DNA of 64,000 nt, from NCBI GenBank assembly GCA_963817895.1, contig CAWFQB010000003.1, positions 160,001-224,000 on the forward strand. Reading direction: 5' to 3'. The stretch's first letter is position 1, and each line of letters begins with the position of its first letter. Of this stretch, positions 21,001-24,000 are shown piece after piece. The position numbers were made by a program. This stretch comes from an uncultured Chthonomonadaceae bacterium (GTDB lineage: Bacteria; Armatimonadota; Chthonomonadetes; Chthonomonadales; Chthonomonadaceae).

Positions 21001-24000
21001 CTAATTTGAAGATCGAAATCGTCAAAATCCTGACCGCCGAAGGCTTTATCAAGGGTTACGATGTTATCAAGCAGGTTCCCCAGGACAAAATTAAAATCAC
21101 GCTTAAGTACGGCTCCAAGCGCGAGAAGGTGATTACCCAATTGAAGCGCATCAGCAAGCCCGGCCTGCGCGTGTACTGCAACAAGGACAATGTGCCTCGC
21201 GTTCTGCGCGGTTTGGGCATTGCCGTCCTGTCCACGTCGCACGGCGTGATGACCGACCGCGAAGCCCGCAGGCGCGGCGTCGGCGGCGAAGTTCTTTGCT
21301 ATGTGTATTAAGGAGGTAGACGGTAGACGGTAGACGGTAGACGGTAGAAAAAACTTCTTTGCTGCGCGCTGTTCTGTTTTGTAGCAAGCATGATTTCAGA
21401 GTGAGGCCTTTCTACCGTCTACCGTCTACCGTCTACCGTCTACCCGGAGAGCATCCATGTCTCGAATTGGAAAACGTCCCATTCCCGTGCCGGCTGGCGT
21501 GGCGATTACGCCAACCCCGGATGGGCTGGTAACAATTAAAGGCCCGAAAGGGACGCTGACGCGACAGTTCAGCCCCGACATTACCCTGCGCCAGGAAGAC
21601 GGCACTCTGCACGTTGAGCGGCCCACAGACGGCAAAGAGCATCGCGCTTTGCACGGTCTGACCCGCACTCTCGTTGCCAACATGATCGAAGGCGTCACCA
21701 CAGGCTACACCCGCCAGTTGGAAGTGCAGGGCGTCGGTTTCCGCGCCGCAGTCAATGGAGCGATTTTGACGCTCAACGTTGGCTTCTCCCACTCCATTGA
21801 AGTGCTGCCCCGCGAGGGCATTGCGTTCGCCGTCGCCAACGACCCGCAATCCCGTAACCCGGTCATCACAATTACGGGCATTGACAAAGAGCGCGTCGGC
21901 CAGACGGCTGCCGAAATCCGCAAACTTCGCAAACCCGAACCCTACAAGGGCAAAGGCATCCGCTACAAAGGCGAAGCCGTGCGCCGCAAACAGGGCAAGG
22001 CCAGCGGCAAGGGCGGCAAGGGTAAGAAGTAGATACGAGATACAAGATAAGAGATACGAGGAAAAGCTGTATTCGATAGGCGCATTGCCCTCGTATCTCA
22101 TATCTCTTATCTTGTATCTCCTGAGCCAGAGGAAAACACAACCATTATGAAACCTGATGAAAAGGAAGCGCTGCGGCGCAAGCGCCACAAGCGCCTGCGT
22201 TACAAAGTGGCCGGAACCGCCGAACGGCCCCGCCTCAATGTATCGCGCAGTCTACAGCATATCTATGCGCAGTTGATTGATGATGTCACCGGAACCACGC
22301 TTGCGACTGCTTCCACCGTAGATGCCGGTTTGCGCGTGTCCCTGAAGACCGGCGGGAATGTGGAAGCCGCGAAAGCCGTCGGCGCGCTGATCGCCGAACG
22401 CGCGCTGGCAAAAGGCGTCAATGCTGTCGTGTTTGATCGCGGCGGCTACAAATATCATGGCCGCGTCCAGGCGCTCGCGGACAGCGCGCGTGAAGGCGGA
22501 CTAAAATTCTAGGTAGATGAGTAGATGGGTAGTCGGTAGATAGGTAGAAAAGCCTGCTACATACAATGCCTCTTGTTAAGATGAAAGATGTAGAGTAGAG
22601 AAACTCTACCCATCTACCTGACTACCTATCTACTCATCTACCTTCTAAAGGAGTTTCCATTGGCAAGAATCAATCCTGATAAACTGGGCGATCTGGAAGA
22701 GCGCGTGGTACGCACCAACAAATGCCAGAAAACCACCAAGGGTGGCCGCAATATGAGCTGGAGCGCTCTGGTCATTGTAGGCGACCGCAACGGTCACGTC
22801 GGCGCGGGTCTGGGCAAAGCGCGCGCTATTCCCGACGCGATCCGCAAGGGCGTGGAAGCGGCGAAAAAGAACATCATCGAAATTCCGACGATTGGCGGCA
22901 CGTTGCCGCACGAAATTTTCGAGACCGAAGGCGCGGCGGAAGTGATGCTTCGTCCGGCTTCGCCGGGAACCGGAATCGTGGCGGGCAGTTCCATGCGAAC
23001 CATTCTGGAACTGGGCGGCATCCATGATGTGCTTGGCAAATCGCTCGGCTCTTCCAACGCGACCAACATCTGCTGGGCCACCATGTCCGCGCTGAAGAAA
23101 CTGAAGCGCGTGGAAGACGTGGCGCGGCTGCGCTCGACTACTGTAGAAGCCTTGATGCCCTGGATTCACAAGGCGGAAGGGAACAACCATGTCGGCTAAA
23201 TTGAAAATCACGCTCAAGCGCAGCCCCATCGGCTACAACAAAGATCAGGGCGCGACGGTCAAAGGGCTTGGCCTGAAGAAAATCAACCAGACTGTTGAAC
23301 AGGACGACAACGCCGTGATTCGCGGCATGGTCCACAAAGTTCAGCATCTGCTTGAAGTGGAATACGTCGCAAGCAACTAACCATTTTCACCTATTTTCTG
23401 AAACCGTTTGCGGATTAGCTTCGTTTTAGGTATACTTAGTCCTAATGCTGATCCGCAGGCATTTTCTTTTCTCTTTTACGGAAGAGACGCAGGAATCTAT
23501 TATGCCTATCGGATTGCATACATTGAAACCCGCCGAAGGCTCCACGCACCGCCGCAAGCGCATCGGGCGCGGCATCGGTTCGGGACACGGCAAAACGTCC
23601 ACGCGCGGACACAAGGGAAACAAGGCGCGCGGACAGATCAATCCCAACTTTGAAGGCGGCCAGACACCGCTGCACCGCCGTCTGCCACAATTGCGCGGCT
23701 TCAAGCCCGTCAACAAGAAAGAGTACGCTCTTATCAATGTGGACGCGCTTCAGGAGCAGTTCGAGGACGGCGCGGAAGTGACGCCCGACATCCTGCTGGC
23801 GCGGGGAATTTTGCGCGACATTTACGACGGGCTGAAGATTCTGGGCAACGGCGAAGTGTCCCGAAAACTCACCGTCCGCGCGCACAAGTTCAGCCAATCC
23901 GCGCAGGATAAAATTACGGCGGCAGGCGGCACTGTGGTTGTTCTGGCGACTGAGAGGAAAAAGTAAGACCATGTTACAGGCAATGCAGCGGGCGCTGGCG

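Follow-up and report, generated by a model that had tools for sequence, protein, structure and literature searches.

Tandem-armed foldback elements in the ribosomal-protein operons and 23S rRNA gene of a Chthonomonadaceae genome: a possible relative of rRNA intervening sequences

The window analysed here is a stretch of 64,000 nucleotides from the genome of an uncultured Chthonomonadaceae bacterium (G000, 81% complete). Within it, the spacers S8|L6, L6|L18 and L18|S5 between ribosomal-protein genes are each occupied by a long hairpin whose arms consist of tandem 7-8-nt units. Coordinates are window positions unless a contig is named, and gene identities in the window come from Pfam.

21313-21446, no strand assigned: foldback element between the S8 and L6 genes (inverted-repeat scan, TRF, RNA fold, Pfam)
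22031-22119, no strand assigned: foldback element between the L6 and L18 genes, AGATACG-type units (inverted-repeat scan, TRF, fold, Pfam)
22511-22643, no strand assigned: foldback element between the L18 and S5 genes, 8-nt GTAGATGA-type units (TRF, RNA fold)

The S8|L6 element begins 2 nt past the S8 stop codon (TAA), and about 12 nt remain from its end to the L6 ATG. Its left arm (21315-21350) is (GGTAGAC)x5, its centre spans 21351-21408 and its right arm (21409-21444) is (GTCTACC)x5, giving a stem of 36 with 36 matches and a loop of 58. In the L6|L18 element, the first unit of which overlaps the TAG stop of L6, the arms are offset from each other by one unit (stem 31, 27 matches, loop 27). 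The L18|S5 element abuts the TAG stop of L18 with its first unit and is made of the 8-mers GTAGATGA and GTAGATGG plus one 7-mer, GTAGTCG, the variants being mirrored in the opposite arm. The three stems thus measure 36, 31 and at least 24 bp, against a genome median of 28. The RNA folds have minimum free energies of -86.0, -44.0 and -71.0 kcal/mol (z -11.8, -6.3 and -9.5); none of 200 shuffles folded equally well, and the other strand gave the same behaviour. The survey's finding that hairpins fill these three spacers is therefore borne out by the arms and folds seen at all three, and a comparison of the orthologous spacers agrees with it that the sister species hold other units there. The S8|L6 element is missing in contigs of relatives, where 21315 is joined to 21457 with 7 letters between, and the L18|S5 site is cleanly empty in a relative's contig, 22512 being joined to 22648 with only TTCT between. 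A contig scan for L6 brought up only distant relatives, with identities of 59% at most.

Further elements lie elsewhere in the window, many of them in the neighbouring ribosomal-protein operons.

9780-9898, no strand assigned: element between the ETF-alpha gene and a CCG/Fe-S protein gene, GGTTTTAG units, stem 34, loop 51 (scan, TRF, Pfam)
20563-20682, no strand assigned: element upstream of the S14 gene, TGGTTGG units, stem 37, loop 46 (scan, TRF, Pfam)
25291-25403, no strand assigned: element in the SecY|Adk spacer, GGAAAAA-type units, stem 21, loop 71 (scan, TRF, Pfam)
26876-26978, no strand assigned: element in the Map|IF-1 spacer, GGTGTTC/GGTATTC units, stem 40, loop 23 (scan, TRF, Pfam)
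27975-28048, no strand assigned: inverted array pair upstream of S13, AGGGAAA ... CTTTCTC (TRF rows only, 27975-28004 and 28019-28048; Pfam)
30795-30908, no strand assigned: element in the RpoA|L17 spacer, GAGATAC units, stem 23, loop 68 (scan, TRF, Pfam)
31480-31575, no strand assigned: element in the L17|TruA spacer, TAGTTGA units, stem 21, loop 54 (scan, TRF, Pfam)
33340-33519, no strand assigned: element after S9, 9-nt units ACAGGATTA, stem 37, loop 106 (scan and arm matches)
42456-42571, no strand assigned: element between two minus-strand genes (GAF protein, ANTAR response regulator), GTAGATAG units, stem 29, loop 58 (scan, TRF, Pfam)

The SecY|Adk element is imperfect, its period identity of 0.64 lying under the strict tandem threshold. 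Two of the elements share their arms with gene-bearing copies elsewhere: those of the element after S9 (arm matches C3:193332-193524, which is window 33332-33524) are identical to the arms of a PF13366-carrying element at C1:43817-44328, and the unit at the ETF-alpha site is the same as that around a PF05635 gene at C2:440314-440628. No Rfam family matched anywhere in the 64-kb window. Intrinsic terminators were considered and rejected: a scan of window 20000-34000 for a GC-rich stem with a T-run behind it came up with 20 instances, where 19.1 were expected, and none at the hairpins.

Genome-wide, we counted the elements in two ways: strictly, by a gapless inverted-repeat scan that requires tandem arms, and by pairing inverted TRF arrays. 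The scan gave 1432 clusters, 386 of them with tandem arms (period 7: 272; period 8: 97), with a median stem of 28 and a median loop of 51. TRF returned 6932 rows, with peaks at period 7 (1794) and period 8 (1057), and 601 array pairs, of which 512 are less than 200 nt apart. The survey's figure of about 460 hairpins falls between the 386 of the strict scan and the 512 TRF pairs. An element consists of a C-poor, G-rich arm of tandem 7-8-nt units, a centre, and a reverse-complement arm; a second class has units of 9-10 nt. Most copies are gene-free, and 61 unit types occur among 348 elements. With gene positions taken from a crude gene caller made for this analysis, the elements begin a median 1-3 nt past the upstream stop and end 18.5-21 nt ahead of the next start, much as the survey had reported (3 and 19 nt), and the spacers that bear them are otherwise very short. 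Spacers between divergent genes are depleted, with 18 of 348 elements in 961 spacers that make up 24% of intergenic bases. The frequency after genes rises with codon bias, from 1.1% in the lowest decile to 8.5% in the highest. Among genes that abut an element, 129 of 226 end in TAG, compared with 25% genome-wide, and the stop is often in phase with the first unit. Solo arrays obey the same positional rule, G-rich ones lying a median 5 nt after stops and C-rich ones a median 29 nt before starts.

Of the 348 elements, 345 lead with the G-rich arm (C-rich first 2, tie 1), as do 72 against 0 on the contig of a sister species, G002. Since the 5' arm of a palindrome is identical on both strands, this polarity says nothing about the direction of transcription; the earlier statement that the G-rich arm leads holds as a property of the palindrome, not as an orientation relative to genes. 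The 45 elements between convergent genes are G-first without exception; selection through polarity effects on downstream genes does not apply there, which points to the DNA level. Avoidance of Rho as the source of the polarity was rejected on the same ground, as it leaves these 45 unexplained.

Of the centres, 309 were searched against the genome. No relative turned up for 265, in line with the earlier description of them as mostly unrelated; the remaining 44, for which that description fails, form families of 14, 11 and smaller. At least seven AGGGAGT elements at unrelated loci have a common centre of about 28 nt. In the register searched, (AGATACG)3 has 126 exact matches in G000, not the 276 first reported, and the reported absence of this commonest unit of G000 from 41 other family genomes stands. 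The nested example at C12:41377-41578 could be confirmed, and it is the only fully nested pair. Insertion into the loops of existing hairpins was rejected as a targeting rule, given this single pair and several empty sites that are hairpin-free; by a rough reckoning, the 26.4 kb of centres contain 42 arrays against about 27 expected. The direct-repeat lengths at the ends of 285 elements follow the shuffled-flank distribution and the empty sites are clean, confirming that target-site duplications do not accompany the elements. Adjacent elements do not share a unit more often than expected, either in G000 (15 of 334 pairs vs 17.9) or in G002 (5 of 72 vs 4.3). The idea that the arms serve to close all three reading frames was also discarded: all-frame stops occur in 119 of 348 5' arms, compared with 43% for shuffled units, and 110 arms have none. 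As a separate observation, 74 of 348 elements have AATGC or GCATT where the centre meets the arm, compared with 19 in a mirror control, a real signal in a minority of elements.

Our comparison with the sister species, which rests on one 793-kb G002 contig, shows both persistence and turnover. At 63 anchored G002 sites, G000 carries a tandem hairpin in 34 cases and another inverted repeat in 15 (49 of 63 together), usually with changed units, and 8 sites are cleanly empty; conversely, among 44 anchored G000 sites, 2 are empty in the G002 contig. In the aligned cases the stop codon has stayed where it was, except for one gene that now ends inside an arm. Gain and loss of elements are clean and leave no target-site duplication. 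Occupation of most sites predates the divergence of the two species, unless hot spots or host selection account for the shared occupancy. Arm units differ between the species and remain tandem and complementary. Orthologous units are closer to each other than shuffled pairs (mean distance 2.12 vs 3.09; none of 2000 shuffles reaches it), and centres are recognisably related at only 2 of 34 orthologous sites. On the sense strand, stem mismatches are 121 G:T against 133 A:C (p 0.49), which is a weak test because one mismatch among 30 bp may have next to no selective effect. As a check on palindromic copying, the arms were compared for mirrored unit variants: pairing is 94% in the best register and 86-87% one unit off, but 96.4% observed against 95.5% under a null of permuted units, with only 1 of 240 elements individually significant. 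Mirroring is visible in single cases, namely the element at window 22511-22643 and two AGGGAGT copies.

A few copies carry genes. Both PF05635 and all four PF13366 genes of G000 (6 of 6) lie between inverted tandem-unit arms, among them the PF05635 gene at C1:1459251-1459607 and the PF13366 gene at C8:26407-26853. PF05635 (TIGR02436) is the four-helix-bundle "IVS protein", and PF13366 (TIGR04256) a GxxExxY PD-(D/E)XK nuclease; genes of both families are very common. Across 26 genomes of the order, flanking inverted repeats, counted at a score of at least 18.5, surround every full-length PF05635 copy (13 of 13) and 19 of the 23 for PF13366; among 300 random small genes the 99th percentile was 13.5, and 2 scored 20 or more. 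The arms of three PF13366 elements recur elsewhere with 22, 60 and 106 arm matches, and their internal parts recur nowhere. Gene-less and gene-bearing copies thus have arms in common. We know of no transposase or other enzyme activity for either family. The survey had found no linked transposase, and for classical ones this stands: none of the three Y1_Tnp (PF01797) genes of G000 has tandem-unit arms around it. Two small gene families, PF05635 and PF13366, are however consistently enclosed by arms of this kind. One Y1_Tnp gene is flanked by a different palindrome, GCGTCCGAAGGACGC. A reverse transcriptase was rejected as a partner, since the single RVT_1 gene has a defence-like neighbourhood and adjoins no element. 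Strict hairpins per 100 kb number 9.2 in G002, 5.2 in G000, 2.0 in G001 and 0 in both G005 and G013, and PF05635 copies above the cut-off number 3, 2, 0, 1 and 0 in the same order; a link between cargo-gene number and hairpin density is only suggestive.

The same build is found in the 23S rRNA gene. In the hairpin loop at positions 1206-1226 of the Rfam LSU model, which we assign to helix 45 by the site named in PMC4990558, both species carry an insert, its arms being built of (TAGGGAT) in G000 and of (GTAGTCA) in G002. G002 has another 23S insert elsewhere, at a site where G000 has a 4-nt loop. An intervening sequence (IVS) at helix 45 with the architecture of the intergenic hairpins gives the element family a known relative. 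IVSs are known from 23S helices 9, 25 and 45 in Salmonella, Leptospira, Coxiella and others. As PMC4990558 describes them, an extended stem-loop takes the place of a tetraloop and is formed by terminal inverted repeats of about 28 bp (28 bp in Coxiella), RNase III cuts it, and some IVSs carry a PF05635/S23p gene. The same paper states that their origin and mobility are unexplained and that they are regarded as selfish. G000 has a gene with an RNase III domain (one Ribonucleas_3_3 match). Of the RNA runs examined for transcription or cleavage, the best contained 0.19 of the sampled words, and the four compared in detail consist of contigs.

Based on these findings, we propose, as a fairly probable reading, that the hairpins are selfish IVS-type foldback elements that reside at their sites for long periods, remodel their two arms in concert and are probably cut by RNase III in RNA. 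The survey's picture of a large, fast-changing foldback family in intercistronic spacers is supported wherever it could be tested. In this scheme, most copies are gene-free and a few full-length ones carry one small gene, PF05635 or PF13366, in the centre. The arms would stay paired and change together through DNA-level processes inside the palindrome, rather than through selection on RNA pairing; candidate processes are replication slippage among units together with template switching or gene conversion between arms. Spread to new sites would be rare, with the two cargo proteins as candidate enzymes. By analogy with IVSs, RNase III would cut the near-perfect stems of 25-40 bp in RNA, and operon transcripts would then be split. 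The insert may be tolerated because, once folded, it would leave the stop codon and the following start close to each other again. The dispersal of copies with the same centre to unrelated loci speaks for a selfish nature, as does the species-specific burst of (AGATACG)3. Against it, copies of a master element would not be expected to include 265 centres without a relative, unless centres decay quickly; the occupancy shared by two species may reflect hot spots or host selection; and a host function could also account for the enrichment behind strongly codon-biased genes.

That last point leads to an unlikely alternative, namely that the hairpins are host-selected RNA elements serving the operons as 3' stabilisers, as RNase III sites that uncouple cistron levels, or as coupling spacers. 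It is compatible with a selfish origin, the elements then being kept by selection as proposed for REP sequences. Retention of hairpins at 49 of 63 orthologous spacers, the codon-bias trend, the concentration in ribosomal-protein operons (12 in the 64-kb window), the exact placement between stop and ribosome-binding site and the scarcity between divergent genes would all be expected of such elements. However, there is no conservation of sequence, as units and centres turn over between sister species; the stems show no excess of G:U over A:C; and close relatives with the same operons have clean empty sites. The same build also occurs in rRNA and around selfish-looking genes, and the window offers neither an Rfam match nor a terminator-like T-run at the hairpins.

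We think it quite unlikely that the elements arose locally and without mobility, growing in place beside the stop through slippage and palindrome-making template switches, with shared units reflecting convergent mutation bias. The unique centres, the missing target-site duplication, the 61 unit types, the TAG stops in phase with the first unit and the solo arrays that follow the same positional rule can all be read in this way, but identical arms at tens of unrelated loci and a centre common to dispersed copies cannot easily be, nor can the same arms around cargo genes, whole-element presence and absence with clean edges, or inserts in rRNA loops.

Somewhat more doubtful still is a different reading in which the arms, rather than being copied as DNA, are synthesised afresh each time an element inserts, and the Avd-like PF05635 protein acts as a cofactor. 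The two 3' ends at a break would grow by copying a short C-rich template over and over (for example the 3' arm of the element's own transcript) and would then be joined across filler DNA. If true, this would explain the strict G-first polarity on both strands, the tandem 7-8-nt units in variable number, the missing target-site duplication, the unrelated centres among copies with the same arms and the preference for highly transcribed genes; it would also unite 23S IVSs, the long-noted prokaryotic excess of heptamer repeats and two very common genes as a new class of mobile element.

G-quadruplex formation by the repeats, like that put forward for the GGGAATC arrays of Xanthomonas, is very improbable. 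Abundant G and a usual number of about four units per arm agree with Rehm et al. 2015 (PMC4692102), but a GGG run occurs in the units of just 67 of the 348 elements (none at S8|L6, L6|L18 or L18|S5), the commonest units ACGAGAT, AGGTTGTT and AAAAGGAG are unable to form G-tetrads, and a complementary arm lies no more than about 50 nt from each G-rich arm. The chance of an assembly or sequencing artefact is negligible, despite the indel errors noted by the survey and the incompleteness of G000, because elements of the same kind stand at orthologous spacers, flanked by intact conserved genes, in G001 and G002 as well, that is, in three independent assemblies.

The selfish IVS-type reading brings together three puzzles: the origin and movement of rRNA IVSs, the excess of heptamer repeats in many prokaryotes, and the role of PF05635 and PF13366 genes. 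Since this genus shows the rRNA form, gene-bearing forms, gene-less copies, filled and empty sites and unit-divergent sisters side by side, these questions become testable. Processing of mRNA from the spc, alpha and other core operons should be influenced by the long perfect stems inside them, which will also confuse predictions of operons, terminators and small RNAs.

Several known systems resemble these elements in part. The foldback (FB) transposons of Drosophila have long inverted arms of short tandem repeats and a variable centre that sometimes bears a gene; they are eukaryotic and kilobase-sized, and the resemblance is one of design only. MITEs such as Correia/NEMIS of Neisseria are short, non-coding, co-transcribed with their neighbours, and share their terminal inverted repeats with a few gene-bearing copies, as our elements share their ends with copies that bear PF05635 or PF13366, families not known to be transposases; yet MITEs make target-site duplications and have a family-wide internal sequence, whereas here duplications are absent and only 44 of 309 centres have relatives. 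REP/BIME/REPIN sequences are extragenic palindromes present by the hundreds after stops and in operons, without target-site duplication and with a proposed role in mRNA stability. Our elements are alike in number, position and the lack of target-site duplication. REPs, however, follow one conserved sequence per genome and flank their own RAYT gene, while our elements have tandem-repeat arms of 61 unit types among 348, and the three Y1_Tnp genes lack such arms. Heptamer repeats are also known from heterocystous cyanobacteria, where they are called STRR.

Closer in arm structure are the GGGAATC arrays of Xanthomonas, described in PMC4692102 as tandem heptamers, mostly of about 4 units, between aligned ORFs and less than 50 bp from stops, rare between divergent ORFs, with 70-75 convergent pairs that are potential stem-loops, and not attached to the same genes across two species; the Nostoc arrays in that account are GGGGA(C/T)T. 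Our elements are likewise intergenic, near stops, between aligned ORFs and often in convergent pairs. The Xanthomonas arrays have one dominant G-tract unit, read as a G-quadruplex, whereas most of our units have no G-runs and most arrays are paired; the abstract and passages of PMC4692102 used here draw no link to IVSs or to PF05635/PF13366. A literature search covering few subscription journals found no paper connecting either gene family with heptamer-armed foldbacks.

IVSs and the elements described here both have a long near-perfect stem (36, 31 and at least 24 bp in the S8|L6, L6|L18 and L18|S5 elements) and some members with a PF05635 ORF, although none of the arm-bracketed PF05635 genes, the two of G000 and 13 of 13 in the order, lies in rRNA. 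The three spacer elements differ from IVSs in lying between cistrons of mRNA and not at 23S helix tips, where other copies do sit. Known IVSs have been reported from rRNA genes alone, in numbers of one to a few per genome, and the passages of PMC4990558 used here do not mention arms of tandem 7-8-nt units; G000 has hundreds of copies in mRNA spacers, with dozens of unit types. What is new, then, is the occurrence of tandem-unit foldbacks by the hundreds between genes, inside ribosomal-protein operons and in the 23S gene, tied to cargo genes, and the gene-bearing copies may help to account for the spread of such repeats.

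Based on our analysis, the best-supported reading of the hairpin elements is that they form a selfish foldback population of the intervening-sequence (IVS) type, in which rare gene-bearing copies accompany hundreds of gene-less ones. Each element consists of a G-rich arm of tandem units, a centre and a reverse-complement arm. In the window, Pfam gives the gene row S14-S8-L6-L18-S5-L30-L15-SecY-Adk-Map-IF1-S13-S11-S4-RpoA-L17, and an inverted repeat of 7- or 8-nt units does occupy each of the three rpsH-rplF-rplR-rpsE spacers, where the survey had placed hairpins with tandem-unit arms:

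S8/L6 spacer: element with (GGTAGAC)x5 arms and a 58-nt centre
L6/L18 spacer: element with AGATACG-type units and a 27-nt centre
L18/S5 spacer: element with 8-mers of GTAGATGA type

RNA folding of these elements gave -86.0, -44.0 and -71.0 kcal/mol (z -11.8, -6.3 and -9.5); none of 200 shuffles folded as well, and the opposite strand was equally stable. At least nine additional elements of the same build lie at other gene junctions of the window.

Several further features of the window were observed. One arm, at 9840-9897, comprises 7 perfect CCCTAAAA copies, whose complement, TTTTAGGG, resembles eukaryotic telomere-type repeats. At 4099-4158 (GGTGTTC beside GTATCTC) and 32337-32442 (GATAAGG, AGATACG and CCTGAACA together), arrays of unlike units adjoin back to back, none of them having a partner, which suggests chimeric or broken elements. 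A 338-aa ORF at 18990-20006, which has a DUF4351 domain and a (QEGR)n repeat and lies upstream of the S14-S8-L6 row in the ribosomal-protein cluster, looks like an inserted gene. Upstream of L18 (rplF/rplR spacers, sequence stretches L003-L011), most genera of the family keep an extended -10-like TGTGGTATAAT; a stem-loop, GCGTTGGGTCGGCAATCCAACGC, directly before the L18 ribosome-binding site is likewise conserved in most of them and kept in the sister species G001 and G002, and is lost here (22120-22146), beside the hairpin. The two could serve the distal spc genes as an internal promoter and a leader structure.

Across the genome (7.48 Mb, 14 contigs, 57% G+C, 81% complete), TRF returned 6932 rows with a sharp excess at periods 7 (1794) and 8 (1057). 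A strict scan for gapless inverted repeats (stems of 16 or more, spans up to 260) gave 1432 clusters, of which 386 had tandem arms (median stem 28, median loop 51), and 601 TRF arrays paired with a reverse-complement array, 512 of these pairs having under 200 nt between them; the earlier figure of about 460 hairpins thus agrees in size. Imperfect copies are missing from the strict count, the L18/S5 element itself falling below the periodicity threshold, and a class with 9-10-nt units is under-counted as well: just three gene-bearing elements have arms with 22, 60 and 106 matches elsewhere in the genome. By our pairing criteria, a further 1341 arrays are unpaired. These behave like single arms: in co-directional spacers, G-rich ones lie a median 5 nt past stops and C-rich ones a median 29 nt ahead of starts.

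Relative to genes (7164, from our own crude gene caller), 348 of the 386 elements have no more than half their length in coding sequence. Their neighbours are co-directional (155 + 130), convergent (45) or divergent (18 of 348, against 24% of intergenic bases in divergent spacers). Most elements start between -5 and +6 relative to where the preceding stop codon ends (mode -2), and the gap to the next start is mostly 10-25 nt. Once the element is subtracted, the median remainder is 25 nt for co-directional spacers and 1 nt for convergent ones, compared with 82 and 100 nt in spacers that have no inverted repeat. TAG stops and highly expressed genes are preferred: TAG is the stop codon of 129 of the 226 abutting genes versus 25% genome-wide, and the occurrence of an element after a gene rises with codon bias, from 1.1% in the lowest decile to 8.5% in the highest. 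The 5' arm is G-rich and C-poor in 345 of the 348 (opposite in 2, a tie in 1), as it is on a G002 contig (72 to 0). Because a palindrome is identical on both strands, this polarity is not an orientation to genes: the form that exists is G-arm, centre, C-arm, and the mirror form does not exist. All 45 convergent elements are also G-first, so that avoidance of polar effects on genes downstream would not suffice as a cause; the polarity more likely reflects the way in which the elements are produced or recognised.

A host function, as an RNA stabiliser or processing site, may apply and could coexist with the selfish reading. Were base pairing of the sense RNA under selection, G:U would be expected to be favoured. 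In co-directional contexts, sense-strand stem mismatches comprised 121 G:T and 133 A:C, but this is weak as a test, since a single mispair among 30 bp may be close to neutral. No Rfam family reached threshold anywhere in the window, and no terminator-like T-runs were found at the hairpins.

A purely local origin of the elements is unlikely. Most centres indeed lack a relative, as the survey had stated, but 44 of 309 (at least 20 nt long) have one in the genome, forming groups of 14, 11, 4 and 3 and six pairs; such kinship is about 20 times likelier in same-unit pairs than in other pairs. At least seven AGGGAGT elements at unrelated loci have a common centre of ~28 nt, in either orientation, with homology stopping at the arm ends, and therefore whole elements are, at least sometimes, copied to new places. 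Of separate note, 35 elements genome-wide have AATGC no more than 20 nt from the 5' edge of the centre and 39 have GCATT at its 3' edge (mirror controls 10 and 9), never both in one element, so that about one-fifth of centres carry a polar arm-proximal motif.

We compared relatives using one 793-kb G002 contig holding the operon and 400-kb samples of three other genomes. The strict scan counts 73 elements on the G002 contig, or 9.2 per 100 kb versus 5.2 here, with a different unit repertoire; the samples have 8 in G001 and 0 in each of the related genomes G005 and G013. That the elements are an artefact is unlikely. At the three spacers, G002 carries other units (GTAGTCA, TAGGCAT, GTAGTCA), as had been claimed for both sisters; G001 has GGAAAAA-type purine-rich hairpins at the second and third and none at the first. 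Among the 23 further genomes of the order that were searched, the spacers of most genera are very short or form plain G+C-rich stem-loops. The commonest unit here is species-specific: (AGATACG)3 has 126 exact matches, and none in 41 other family genomes including both congeners.

When 63 G002 elements were anchored here by their flanks, the site held a tandem hairpin in 34 cases, another inverted repeat in 15, none in 6 and was empty in 8; in reverse, 44 anchored elements gave 34, 5, 3 and 2. Among the 34 tandem-tandem pairs, units were identical in 5 and differed at 1, 2, 3 or 4 positions in 4, 10, 12 and 3. The mean distance of orthologous units was 2.12 versus 3.09 for shuffled pairs (reached in 0 of 2000 shuffles), and centres were recognisably related in 2 of 34, one inverted; as a yardstick, identity across the four ribosomal genes at third codon positions is 68-88%. 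Elements are therefore long resident at a site; their arms change in concert yet remain tandem and complementary, and it is the centres that disappear fastest. Unit slippage, with template switching or conversion between palindrome arms, probably produces such concerted change. At aligned empty sites the whole element is absent, with clean edges directly past an unchanged stop codon, except that one upstream gene now terminates inside an arm. Contigs of uncultured relatives (~85-95% identical) skip the S8/L6 and L18/S5 hairpins, an empty L18/S5 site reading TAG, then TTCT and the S5 ribosome-binding site. The end direct repeats of 285 elements were no longer than in shuffled pairings, which bears out the lack of a target-site duplication.

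The selfish IVS-type reading draws on 23S rRNA. One empty-site pair lies inside this gene, with a 129-nt CAGGGAA-unit element in G002 and a 4-nt loop here. About 600 nt upstream, both species have an insert in a hairpin loop at Rfam LSU model positions 1206-1226, which is the helix-45 site; its arms are (TAGGGAT) here and (GTAGTCA) in G002, the latter unit also being used in G002 spc spacers. According to one account, IVS at this site swap the tetraloop for an extended stem-loop in many bacteria, RNase III removes them, some contain an S23p (PF05635) gene, and their origin and mobility are unexplained (PMC4990558). The elements are thus tolerated both in rRNA helix tips and in the short gap that separates a stop from the next ribosome-binding site. 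By analogy with IVS, their transcripts are probably cut by RNase III; the genome has one gene with an RNase III domain. Folding would bring stop and start near again, from which it would follow that inserts are held even at 2-nt junctions, where they do occur. Both 23S genes (2980 nt here, 3223 nt in G002; model 2925 positions) also have an insertion near model position 312, of ~70 nt here (stretch L058, 3980-4050) and ~190 nt with CAGGGCA-type units in G002 (L059, ~5870-5990).

The genome has two PF05635 ("IVS protein") and four PF13366 (GxxExxY, PD-(D/E)XK nuclease) genes, and all six are enclosed by inverted tandem-unit arms. Across 26 genomes (this one, G001, G002 and 23 others of the order; relatives, hence not independent), flanking inverted repeats scored at least 18.5 for 13 of 13 full-length PF05635 and 19 of 23 PF13366 genes, against a 99th percentile of 13.5 for 300 random small genes of this genome. 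PF05635 copies have 7-8-nt units, with the G-rich arm first in 11 of 13; PF13366 copies have looser 9-10-nt units. For every gene-bearing element here there are gene-less ones built of the same unit (two in the window, 9780-9898 and 33340-33519), which have the arms in common with it and never the internal part. In agreement with the survey, no transposase is linked, all three Y1 transposase genes having flanks without tandem-unit arms. A separate REP-like palindrome, GCGTCCGAAGGACGC, stands on both sides of a Y1_Tnp (RAYT-like) gene (contig positions C5:223400-224300, stretch L016, and C4:610140-610363) and recurs in other spacers, so the genome has a REP/RAYT system beside the foldbacks. Three other transposase genes (C2:121358-122596, C3:336273-337417, C3:364006-365389; one matched Pfam DDE_Tnp_1 families, two were judged by eye) are bracketed by a G-rich array and the reverse complement of that array, which looks as though insertion sequences had entered foldback centres.

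Our literature search, with most subscription journals and older IVS papers outside its scope, found no paper tying PF05635 or PF13366 to heptamer-armed foldbacks and no description of IVS-type elements in mRNA spacers. Intergenic paired heptamer arrays of Xanthomonas have been read as G-quadruplex repeats (PMC4692102); for the elements here, a G-quadruplex function is unlikely. Known IVS have been described in rRNA only, whereas the present elements lie mostly in mRNA spacers.
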